Below are positions 60,314-62,820 of a stretch of 64,000 nucleotides of DNA, in pieces; the first letter of the stretch is position 1, and every line of letters starts with the position of its first letter. The stretch spans positions 512,001 to 576,000 of the forward strand of contig JAUQPB010000001.1 of the NCBI GenBank assembly GCA_030550585.1. Reading direction: 5' to 3'. The position numbers and the translations under genes are program-made. Source of the DNA: Thermoproteota archaeon. Its GTDB lineage: Archaea > Thermoproteota > Thermoprotei_A > Sulfolobales > Ignisphaeraceae. The notes below the pieces were generated by a model. The model had not been told where the DNA came from. It saw nothing but the letters and a program-made list of their open reading frames with translations, and searched no databases.

Positions 60314-60371
60314 TATCAGATAAAGGAATTCCAATCATATATTCTCATGAGGGGTGGAGTATCATCATCTA
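60314..60371 (-). ncRNA. Box C/D guide sRNA with two guides antisense to 16S rRNA
   Basis: Minus strand: C ATGATGA 60368-62, D' ATGA 60348-45, C' ATGATTG 60338-32, D CTGA 60319-16; guides CTCCACCCCT and AATTCCTTTA complement conserved 16S AGGGGUGGAG and UAAAGGAAUU. Confidence 0.85.
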
Positions 60372-61096
60372 CCGAAAAACTTTTGAAGAGTTGTCTGCTT
60401 TGATATAAGAGTCTTTATCTGCGGATCATCTGTTGCAATGCCGTCTACACCATATCCAATCACCTTCAATGCTATAGCAACATCGTTAACAGTCCACGTA
60501 TACACCCTCAATCTTTTTGAGCGGATCTCTTTAACCACTCTTGGAGAAATGGTATTAAACCTTGGTAGTATGGCAAACGCCTTTATCTTCAAGGCAAATT
60601 CTATTGGCATTAGATGAGAATATGTTAATAAGCCTACTTCAAGCTTTTCATCTAAGCCCTTTAGTTTTGCTAAAACATCATAATTAAATGATATCAATAG
60701 ACAGTTTTCATAAATGTTGTACTGTTTTATCAGAGTTGCTACAACATTTTCTATCCCTTCATCTTTTAGCTCAATAAACATTGGTATCTTATTGCCAAAC
60801 TCCTGCAAAACCTCCTCGAAGGTGGGTATAGTTTCCTCTCCAAAAATTTTAATGTTTTTCAATTCATTTACCCGTAGCTCAGAAACTTTCTTAGGTATGC
60901 CAGCAACTCTCTTTAGATCCTCATCATGTAGAACTATAGGCACTCCATCAAGAGTTCTACGAAGATCAAATTCAATTGCATCTGCACCCATCTCTATGGC
61001 TTTTCTAAAAGATTTTATTGTGTTCTCTGGTGCGTGTGCAGAGGCCCCTCTGTGTGCAATAACTAAAAACTTCTCCTTCCAACTCATATTCTTCAT
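60365..61096 (-). CDS. Glycerophosphodiester phosphodiesterase (GDPD) with C-terminal PIP box
   Basis: IAHRGAS..APENT, IEFD, LHD, IELK, ISF, WTVND, GVDGIATDDP; ends KQTTLQKFFGR. Confidence 0.93.
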   Translation of the reverse strand: MKNMSWKEKFLVIAHRGASAHAPENTIKSFRKAIEMGADAIEFDLRRTLDGVPIVLHDEDLKRVAGIPKKVSELRVNELKNIKIFGEETIPTFEEVLQEFGNKIPMFIELKDEGIENVVATLIKQYNIYENCLLISFNYDVLAKLKGLDEKLEVGLLTYSHLMPIEFALKIKAFAILPRFNTISPRVVKEIRSKRLRVYTWTVNDVAIALKVIGYGVDGIATDDPQIKTLISKQTTLQKFFGR

Positions 61097-61920
61097 CCCT
61101 TTGTAACACTTCTCGAGGCTATTTCCTGGTAGAGGTGGTATAGCTCTGATTTTGATGGATCTGAGTTTGCTGAAATCAAATCATTGTACATTTTTCTGGC
61201 AAGCGTTTCAACGTCTATTCCAGGCTCAATACAGATTTGAGCATCTTTGTGATGGCGCATAATTGTTATGAGGGTTAATGAAAATGCTGCTAAATCATCG
61301 TTGCTGACCTTCGATTCCTCTACTTTTCTCTTCATCAAATCTATAAGCTGTGTAAAATAGGGATCTTCTCCAAGTTCTTTCACAGTCTCTAAATCTCTTA
61401 AAATTATCTTTGTAGCAACTTCAGCAAAGGCATTTAGTGGTGGAAGCATATCATCACTATTTACACATGGAATTCTGAGCCGCTTTTGATCAACAGTCGC
61501 TTGTTGTGAGATTATGGACATTAGCGAAATGACTTCTCTAAGCATATTCATCAATTTGATAATATCGGCAACCTTCTGATACTCTATTAAACACCTTCTT
61601 GAAACAGAGTGTGCATCAAAACCGAACTTGGATGGTGCCAGTCCCACAAGCCTCTCTAGAAAAGCTATCTCATTTTTTTCAGCTCTAAGCAAAAACTGTG
61701 CAAGTCTTCTTTGTAATAAGACTATATCGCTATAGCTAATGCCATGCATTCTAGCAACATTGATACTATGTAAAGCTATGGTTATTGCTAGAGCTGCATA
61801 AGGTTTGGTAAGAAAATCAATCTTGCTTATCACATCGCTGCTTAGAACTCCTTGAACTCTATAACACTTATGCAGCTTCAGTATAGCATCGACAAAGTCG
61901 TTGTATTTAGTTAAGCTCAT
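61093..61920 (-). CDS. Hypothetical alpha-helical protein, translationally coupled to GDPD
   Basis: 275-aa ORF; stop overlaps GDPD ATG (ATGA 61096-61093). Confidence 0.8.
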   Translation of the reverse strand: MSLTKYNDFVDAILKLHKCYRVQGVLSSDVISKIDFLTKPYAALAITIALHSINVARMHGISYSDIVLLQRRLAQFLLRAEKNEIAFLERLVGLAPSKFGFDAHSVSRRCLIEYQKVADIIKLMNMLREVISLMSIISQQATVDQKRLRIPCVNSDDMLPPLNAFAEVATKIILRDLETVKELGEDPYFTQLIDLMKRKVEESKVSNDDLAAFSLTLITIMRHHKDAQICIEPGIDVETLARKMYNDLISANSDPSKSELYHLYQEIASRSVTKG

Positions 61921-62043: not shown

Positions 62044-62277
62044 TTACCTTTCAACAACAATAAGTGTTGTTGTTGCTTTGATGTGGGGCAACCTTCTAAT
62101 TCTTGATATAACAGCATTTCTCAATTTATCAAAGTTTTCAGCTTCGACTATGGCCACCACATCGTATATACCATAAACTATGTGAACCTCTTTAACCTCT
62201 GGGATTTGTGATAAAAGTTTCACAACCTCTTCCTCCATACCAACATCAGTATTTAGTAATACGATGGCTTTTGCCAA
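62044..62277 (-). CDS. Stand-alone Lrp/AsnC ligand-binding (RAM) domain protein
   Basis: AIVLLN...G.E..V, V.EVHIVYG.YDVVA.VEA, IR....I..T.TLI; no HTH. Confidence 0.9.
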   Translation of the reverse strand: MAKAIVLLNTDVGMEEEVVKLLSQIPEVKEVHIVYGIYDVVAIVEAENFDKLRNAVISRIRRLPHIKATTTLIVVER

Positions 62278-62337: not shown

Positions 62338-62754
62338 TTAATCTCCAATAACAACAATTATAACATTCCTAACAGATCTAGGCCCATCCATTTCAACTAA
62401 AAATATGTTTTGCCAAGTACCTCTAACAAGCCGGCCATTTATTACTGGAAAAACTCTTTCAGCACCTATTATGGCTGAGCCTATGTGAGCATGAGCATTG
62501 GTGTCAATAATATTGTGCTTCCACTCCCTCTCAGGTTTTACAAGCTCTTTAATAAACGTTATTATATCGTTGAGGAGGCCAGACTCACTCTCATTGGCAA
62601 TTATCGCAGCTGTTGCATGAGGTGCGAAAACAAGGCAAAGACCATTCTTGATTCCACTCCTTTTTACTGTGTTTTCAACGTGTTCTGTTATATCGATTAG
62701 CTCAAATTGCTTTGTTGTCGAAATTTTTATAGTCTCGTAAAAAACCTTGCACAA
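62338..62754 (-). CDS. YjbQ/UPF0047 family protein
   Basis: IDIT, HATAAI..NE.E, NAHAHI, GTWQNIFLVE.DGPR; TTG 62754 after GGTG. Confidence 0.93.
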   Translation of the reverse strand: MCKVFYETIKISTTKQFELIDITEHVENTVKRSGIKNGLCLVFAPHATAAIIANESESGLLNDIITFIKELVKPEREWKHNIIDTNAHAHIGSAIIGAERVFPVINGRLVRGTWQNIFLVEMDGPRSVRNVIIVVIGD

Positions 62755-62820
62755 GATGTTTGCACCTAGGTATAGAGGATAGAACAACGTTAAAAACTGT
62801 TATGTTTTATTTGTTTACCT

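Follow-up and report, generated by a model that had tools for sequence, protein, structure and literature searches.

The question raised by this locus is whether a glycerophosphodiester phosphodiesterase (GDPD) carries, at the end of its catalytic barrel, a functional docking motif for the sliding clamp PCNA. The gene lies in a 64,000-nucleotide stretch of DNA (the window), taken from an archaeal genome of 1.76 Mb that is 99.9% complete, and the closest matches to the protein are named Ignisphaera in their source databases. An initial annotation had described the product as a complete GDPD barrel followed by a short linker and a PCNA-interacting (PIP) box. Here, we consider the enzyme, the box and its conservation, and then weigh what the tail might be for.

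The enzyme

The GDPD gene occupies 60365..61096 on the reverse strand, including the stop codon, and encodes an open reading frame (ORF) of 243 amino acids. An alternative start at M4 (61087, same strand) gives the 240-residue form found in the protein database. Pfam family PF03009 (GDPD) matched residues 15–226 with an E-value of 6.9e-44 and a score of 151.2 bits, compared to a cut-off of 23.6, and the match covered positions 1–243 of the 244 in the profile. PF03009 and PF13653 were the only Pfam matches in the ORF, and the NCBIfam matches were to GDPD-type models. The closest solved relative by sequence is the GDPD from Thermoanaerobacter tengcongensis (PDB 2pz0; E = 2.5e-36). The AlphaFold2 (AF2) model of the protein (pLDDT 96.1) is a (β/α)8 barrel that could be aligned to 2pz0_A by VIA-align with Z = 32.2 and an rmsd of 1.4 Å over 224 residues. 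The barrel described by the initial annotation is therefore indeed complete, in both profile coverage and fold. Its limits (60419..61054, reverse strand) were set from the Pfam match, the 2pz0 alignment, the invariant columns and the AF2 model.

Residues H15, R16, E42, D44, H57, E109 and K111 occupy the active-site positions in the alignment with 2pz0 and showed no variation across 36 aligned sequences. From the literature on 2pz0, we take these two histidines, the arginine, the Glu/Asp/Glu set and the lysine to be the catalytic and metal-binding residues of a GDPD. The N-terminus has no signal sequence, since the HRG motif already begins at residue 15. The predicted product is a complete, cytosolic, UgpQ-type GDPD with an intact set of catalytic residues, and its predicted activity is glycerophosphodiester hydrolysis. 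The sequence gives no sign that the active site has been retooled, and its catalytic set matches that of any ordinary GDPD. No other PF03009 gene occurs in the genome.

The C-terminal box

Residues 234–241 (60374..60397, reverse strand) read Q-x-x-L-x-x-F-F, exactly as had been claimed, and match the PIP definition Q-x-x-h-x-x-a-a given in the available portion of a review of archaeal PCNA (PMC4929162). The assignment of the box draws on the sequence, the orthologue alignment and the complex model described below. A glycine and an arginine (60368..60373, reverse strand) follow the box, directly before two stop codons, so that the box is near-terminal rather than at the extreme C-terminus as originally described; the orthologues have 0–4 such trailing residues, often basic. 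Between barrel and box, residues 227–233 (60398..60418, reverse strand; defined from the alignment, the AF2 model and the column entropies) form either a linker or the start of the last helix. They are hydrophobic at 227 and 231, basic at 228 and 233, and highly variable at the other positions, with Gly, Ser or Asn in several orthologues. The short linker of the initial annotation is thus present in length, at about seven residues, but AF2 models linker and box together as one continuous helix, a point to which we return below.

PIP-like motifs are diverse, and searches for them yield false positives, as pointed out in the available text of PMC6881253. The chance expectation was calculated on a crude set of 1789 ORFs from this genome. 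The strict motif Qxx[LIM]xx[FY][FY] occurred 20 times, and ended six or fewer residues from the C-terminus in three cases, compared to 0.49 expected; the other two proteins are an ABCE1-type ATPase and a subunit of an Mrp antiporter. The loose pattern [STA]L..[FYW] was found in 64 of the 1789 tails, equal to the internal background of 3.0%, and shows no C-terminal excess in this genome. The strict-motif count in this genome alone has no significance and was given no weight; any excess over chance comes from clade-wide conservation, not from proteome statistics. The flanks of the box carry a net positive charge, and positive flanks raise the affinity of PIP motifs for PCNA, according to the same available text (PMC6881253). 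We considered net charge as a supporting argument (clade median +2, compared to −2 in an outgroup of only six sequences), but found it too weak to use.

Conservation of the tail

Conservation was assessed on the best 120 of 3158 homologues of the GDPD. The pattern [QH]xx[LIM]xx[FYW] was present within the last 14 residues of 30 of the 34 closest homologues, which range in identity from 99% to 44%; one of the four close homologues without it is a fragment at a contig end. Among the more distant GDPDs in the matches listed, the pattern was found in only 2 of 86.

We also surveyed 26 Ignisphaeraceae genomes from six genera, counting as orthologues full-length proteins with at least 45% identity. 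Such an orthologue was found in 20 genomes. Conservation of the box in orthologues had been named beforehand as a test of the PIP assignment, and 18 of the 20 species-level orthologues indeed end in K-Q-x-x-L-x-[KR]-[YF], preceded by a variable linker. In the two exceptions, the aromatic position has been lost. The clade consensus is K-Q-x-[TK]-L-x-[KR]-[YF]-x, and the eighth motif position is non-aromatic in most orthologues, as it is in known PCNA clients of the Ignisphaeraceae. The box is missing from the GDPD of genus g5, which is 40% identical. The gene itself is absent from two sister genomes (97% and 99% complete), and in one further genome of the family it is a pseudogene fragment with stop codons; the enzyme is dispensable in some sister species.

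Column entropies were calculated from 30 clade sequences, for which the mean was 1.25 bits. They were low at Q234 (0.21 bits), L237 (0.36 bits), K233 (0.56 bits) and Y/F240 (0.81 bits), with the lysine present in 27 and the glutamine in 29 of the 30 sequences. The linker positions 229, 230 and 232 had entropies of 2.8–3.4 bits, and the motif positions 235, 238 and 241 ranged from 2.05 to 3.04 bits, with 2.96 bits for 241.

A wider sample consisted of the best 150 representatives, at 50% identity clustering, out of 47,222 matches. In this sample, the glutamine motif together with a high score on the client matrix (described in the next section) was found only in the clade's own representative. 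One other representative scored above the threshold, without the glutamine, and a sister representative at 43% identity keeps K-Q-x-T-L but has lost the aromatic residue. As judged from its conservation across these relatives, the tail is therefore a conserved, lineage-specific addition to the GDPD of the Ignisphaeraceae.

Comparison with the tails of established PCNA clients

The genome encodes three PCNA homologues, whose best solved matches are Saccharolobus PCNA3, PCNA2 and PCNA1. Its Fen1, RNase HII, 799-aa PolB, RFC-L, UDG and NreA all have near-terminal [ST]-L-x-x-[FYW] tails that follow basic residues. The glutamine, however, is missing from all six. The statement in the initial annotation that the form of the box typifies archaeal clients consequently holds for the presence of a C-terminal PIP-like tail, but not for the glutamine, and because the established clients lack this residue, the glutamine-containing “canonical” box of the GDPD is unusual in this genome and family. 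A Lys or Arg before the aromatic residue, as kept in the GDPD, also occurs in several RNase HII tails, whereas most client tails in the family are acidic or neutral at this position.

The likeness was quantified with a matrix derived from 88 client tails (Fen1, RNase HII, UDG and NreA/NreB) of the 26 family genomes, in which each client family was weighted equally and GDPD was excluded. (A first matrix, built from the six tails in this genome only, was overfitted and placed the GDPD outside the top 25; the family-wide one took its place.) The GDPD tail ranked 7th among the 1789 C-termini of the genome. Ranks 1–5 were occupied by the training families and rank 6 by a radical-SAM protein, while PolB, which had been held out, came 9th. 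In the orthologues, 15 of 20 GDPD tails fell at or above the 99th percentile. RFC-L, also held out, reached only the 92nd percentile, and the matrix is therefore incomplete.

Model of the complex with PCNA

A complex between the PCNA3-like subunit, supplied with an alignment of 22 family orthologues, and residues 214–243 of the GDPD was modeled with ESMFold2. The GDPD part of the model is 30 residues long and detached from the barrel, and PCNA is represented by one of its three subunits. The ipSAE scores were 0.77, 0.75 and 0.76, compared to 0.02 for the best of three controls; 58 of 80 solved complexes attain the ipSAE mark used for reference, as do 2 of 110 mismatched pairs. The pLDDT of the partner was at least 51, and the contacts agreed between runs to at least 67%. 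A complex prediction with the PCNA homologues had been suggested as a further check, and with one of the three it thus came out in favor of an interaction, at an ipSAE of ≈0.76.

On the GDPD side, the modeled interface consists of residues 231–238 and 240–242, and on the PCNA side of residues 52, 55–59, 133–138, 210, 235–236, 251 and 253–256. The latter correspond to the hydrophobic pocket, the interdomain connector loop and the C-terminus, which is the site where PIP peptides sit in solved structures. Since PIP–PCNA complexes have already been solved, the favorable score may stem from the memory of the predictor. The model indicates that the tail is sufficiently PIP-like to be docked, and it supports binding to that extent.

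Genomic neighborhood

Directly upstream of the GDPD, on the same strand, is an ORF for a 275-aa protein (61093..61920, reverse strand), the stop codon of which overlaps the GDPD start. Its product, here denoted up275, is an orphan protein with four invariant cysteines (C19, C110, C152 and C230) and an all-helical predicted model (pLDDT 87.8). A stand-alone Lrp/AsnC ligand-binding-domain protein of 77 aa (62044..62277, reverse strand) is encoded 123 bp further upstream. The up275 gene directly precedes the GDPD gene on the same strand in 16 of the 20 orthologous loci, and GDPD and up275 form a conserved operon. The Lrp/AsnC-domain gene precedes up275 in 15 loci, and a convergent gene of the ornithine cyclodeaminase family lies downstream of the GDPD in 11.

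Searches of Pfam, NCBIfam, PADLOC and the PDB sequences returned no match for up275, and the six homologues that were found are all from Ignisphaera. Foldseek gave nothing at E ≤ 0.001, and a search of the protein atlas returned scores of at most 0.79 and no recognizable family. A resemblance to four-helix bundles (best VIA-align Z of 7.5 over 78 residues) was within the noise for helical models and was discarded.

Two genus g4 genomes have two further genes between up275 and the GDPD, immediately upstream of the latter: one for a 293-aa nfo/Endo IV-like protein (below the cut-off) and one for a 608-aa Hef/XPB-like helicase. The helicase, whose PADLOC matches are defense helicases, occurs in 3 of the 26 genomes, in the third of them on a different contig from the GDPD. 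We treated this context as an inserted accessory cassette and gave it little weight, since the helicase is rare (3 of 26), defense-like and absent from the genome studied here.

Alternative explanations for the tail

In our estimate, the chances that the tail is a working PCNA hook, and the GDPD a genuine new PCNA client, are about evenly balanced. The most serious competitor, to which we assign a smaller but appreciable probability, is that in this clade the last TIM-barrel helix has been lengthened, with the leucine and the aromatic residue packing against the bottom of the barrel to stabilize a hyperthermophilic enzyme. The protein would then be a conventional cytosolic GDPD, with glycerophosphodiesters or phosphodiester compatible solutes as its substrates, and its likeness to a PIP box would be coincidental. 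In the AF2 model, residues 227–241 form a single helix that prolongs the last barrel helix, with a mean pLDDT of 88 for residues 231–240 and of 60 for 241–243; the box may be part of the fold instead of a free tail, with hardly any flexible linker before it. A typical PIP motif sits in a terminal stretch that is accessible and, as a rule, disordered. In the closest solved GDPD, the chain stops at the position corresponding to residue 232, which speaks against a structural role, but the distant solved GDPDs 1zcc, 3ks6 and 3qvq align up to model residues 238–240, and in two unrelated GDPDs (P0086 and P0090) the last helix by itself satisfies the loose pattern. The canonical active site, too, is what would be expected of an ordinary enzyme. 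A clade-specific N-terminal pair, Trp6 and Phe10, is present in 28 of 30 sequences and would lie near the C-terminal end by TIM-barrel geometry, where it could clasp the tail; yet one lineage without Trp6 keeps the tail, and three lineages without the aromatic residue keep Trp6. The pattern of conservation also fits poorly with packing. The conserved positions 234, 237 and 240 are spaced i, i+3, i+6, whereas residue 241, which on a regular helix would face the barrel together with 227, 231 and 234, is among the variable columns listed above. Moreover, the near-invariant K233 and Q234 would place polar side chains within the supposed packing stripe, several orthologues have the Gly, Ser or Asn noted above in the linker, and the tail scores like those of true PCNA clients. 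Should the structural explanation nevertheless be right, it would serve as a caution that a perfect PIP box can be imitated by the terminal helix of a TIM barrel, even to the point of passing a docking prediction.

Alternatively, the tail could be a docking motif for a partner other than PCNA, most plausibly the co-transcribed up275, although we consider this improbable. Besides being adjacent in most loci, up275 accompanies the tail-bearing GDPD in all 20 genomes that have one, and was not seen in the genus g5 genome (70% complete), where the GDPD has no tail. This co-occurrence is weak evidence, since the genomes are close kin, and up275 persists in both genomes from which the GDPD has been lost. 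In genus g4, the two genes are 3–6 kb apart and the tail is still kept, and its fit to the PCNA-client profile points away from a partner other than PCNA. Finally, a chance match without function might be suspected from the numbers for a single proteome, in which 0.49 strict C-terminal motifs are expected and three are seen. It is contradicted by the conservation among orthologues, where the box is kept in 18 of 20 down to 45% identity and its motif columns are conserved like the catalytic ones, and we regard it as very improbable indeed.

Proposed function

If the tail is a PCNA hook, the GDPD of the Ignisphaeraceae would have acquired its PIP box within the family. The box, with Q234, L237, F240 and F241, would extend from where the last barrel helix stops and insert into the hydrophobic pocket that lies beneath the interdomain connector loop of PCNA, in our model that of the PCNA3-like subunit, and the phosphodiesterase would thereby be held on DNA-loaded clamps. 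There, it might cut the phosphodiester between a DNA 3′-oxygen and a glycerol-like, ring-opened or fragmented sugar; candidate substrates are the 5′ side of an open-chain abasic (AP) site and the unsaturated-aldehyde end that AP lyases leave behind. The GDPD reaction, in which glycerol-phosphate-OR is converted to glycerol phosphate and ROH, would in this way free a clean 3′-OH. The four-cysteine up275, being co-transcribed, may be a partner. Binding in the cell and the substrate cleaved by the tethered enzyme are what we infer from these considerations. As chemistry, the cleaning of DNA ends by a GDPD is plausible. The full proposal, that the GDPD is a clamp-recruited, new phosphodiesterase of DNA ends or abasic sites, possibly acting with up275 (perhaps an iron-sulfur protein), is a speculative one that we consider unlikely as it stands. 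The safest statement is that the enzyme probably hydrolyzes a phosphodiester next to a glycerol-like diol, given its ordinary GDPD active site.

We know of no GDPD with an activity on DNA. No archaeal literature linking GDPD and PCNA was found, and among the matches listed for the two together there were only animal, human or clinical studies, as seen from titles and the beginnings of abstracts. No GDPD appeared among the matches listed for the literature on AP sites, phosphoglycolate and DNA repair. These negative results hold for the literature outside supplementary tables, where an interactome list could include a GDPD. The idea that the enzyme fills in for a missing AP endonuclease was considered and found to be unsupported: ExoIII is absent from the genome, although there are seven AP_endonuc_2 matches (best E = 4.6e-38), and because members of this family are present there is no obvious gap in repair.

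The conserved tail hints at an unrecognized, DNA-linked job for an enzyme usually classed with lipid breakdown. According to the available portion of PMC4929162, the core set of archaeal PCNA partners is probably only a fraction of the interactome, and a metabolic-looking phosphodiesterase would, if it is a client, be an unexpected addition to that poorly charted interactome. A role in DNA-end processing, if true, would offer a testable lead to how hyperthermophiles clean up heat-induced abasic sites and blocked DNA ends, and a clamp-recruited enzyme of this kind would be the first member of the GDPD/PLC-like barrel superfamily with a nucleic-acid role. The idea lends itself to direct testing, since Ignisphaera aggregans DSM 17230, a relative whose GDPD has the tail, is in culture.

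Comparison with known systems

The GDPD belongs with the cytosolic UgpQ-type enzymes, such as 2pz0 and the Thermococcus/Pyrococcus structures 4oec and 7e0v, with which it shares the Pfam family, the fold (Z = 29.9–32.2) and identical His/Arg/Glu/Asp/His/Glu/Lys positions. It differs from them by the conserved 10-residue, C-terminal, PIP-like extension characteristic of the Ignisphaeraceae, and by being the sole GDPD in its genome. Endonuclease IV, the AP_endonuc_2 TIM barrel, is a metal-dependent phosphodiesterase that acts at AP sites and 3′-blocked ends. By analogy, the GDPD might work as a TIM-barrel phosphodiesterase brought by the clamp to damaged DNA, although the two TIM-barrel families are distinct and the GDPD has no PF01261 or nfo match. 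A PCNA-linked AP endonuclease and EndoQ are reported for Thermococcales (PMC2770678 and PMC4858679).

The available portion of the archaeal PCNA review lists PolB/D, RFC, Fen1, RNase H2, NucS, NreA/B and TIP as partners, and that list includes no phosphodiesterase of the GDPD kind (PMC4929162). With archaeal PIP clients (Fen1, RNase HII, PolB, RFC-L, UDG, NreA and NucS), the GDPD has in common a near-terminal leucine, an aromatic residue three positions on, basic flanks and a variable eighth position. Functionally, such clients are defined by motif-dependent binding to PCNA and by a PCNA-stimulated activity on DNA or RNA-DNA substrates. In contrast to these clients, its catalytic domain has no known nucleic-acid substrate and its linker is very short and predicted to be helical; and unlike the clients of the Ignisphaeraceae, it keeps the glutamine as well as a conserved basic residue at motif position 6. 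The GDPD family and PIP-box clients are each already known, and what is new here is the combination of the two, a GDPD with a putative PIP box.

Genomic Neighborhood of the GDPD Gene

The GDPD gene is co-transcribed with its direct upstream neighbor (positions 61093–61920 of the window, minus strand), which encodes an orphan, all-helical protein of 275 residues, here called up275, with four invariant cysteines (C19, C110, C152 and C230). A search of 5.8 billion proteins returned only six homologues, the named ones being from Ignisphaera, and a fold search with up275 gave no match. Further upstream on the minus strand lie genes for a stand-alone Lrp/AsnC ligand-binding-domain protein of 77 residues (62044–62277), which adjoins up275 in 15 related loci, and for a UPF0047 (YjbQ-like) protein (62338–62787).

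Up275 persists in genomes that lack GDPD. In the Ignisphaeraceae genome G013 (locus L174), no GDPD is found downstream of up275, and in G015 (locus L045) it is a fragment with two stop codons; both are natural losses. GDPD was likewise without a match in G012.

In genus g4, a two-gene cassette lies directly upstream of GDPD on the same strand (L176, 1433–4137, in G019; L177, 4337–7041, in G022). One gene encodes an AP_endonuc_2 protein of 293 residues that, among curated models, matches those for deoxyribonuclease IV best, with scores under their cut-offs; the other encodes a 608-residue Hef/XPB-like SF2 helicase, present in only three of the 26 family genomes.

PIP-Like Tails in Other Proteins

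The loose PIP pattern can be mimicked by the GDPD fold, since a few unrelated GDPDs (P0086, P0090 and P0171) carry Q-x-x-[ILV]-x-x-F near the C-terminus, where it apparently sits inside the normal last helix.

In the window's genome, G000, C-terminal tails resembling those of PCNA clients are also seen in five other proteins: a 281-residue radical-SAM protein (C6:46880–47725, minus strand; rank 6 with a matrix built from client tails), a PAPS-reductase and ferredoxin protein (C4:318282–320357, plus), a TmcA/NAT10-type acetyltransferase (C3:168707–171190, minus), a possibly Mre11-like calcineurin-like phosphoesterase (C4:584066–585262, minus) and ABCE1 (C4:400796–402604, minus).

The 948-residue PolB (C3:177459–180305, plus) has a PIP-like [ST]-L-L-x-F near its N-terminus rather than its C-terminus. 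The established PCNA clients of this genome, Fen1 (C4:440426–441481), RNase HII (C3:225126–225809), UDG (C3:95221–95895), NreA (C4:273728–274978), PolB (C7:298661–301060) and RFC-L (C4:211685–213121), all have PIP tails without the glutamine. Orthologues of Fen1, RNase HII, UDG and NreA/B across the family likewise have glutamine-free PIP tails; some RNase HII orthologues are missing the tail altogether.
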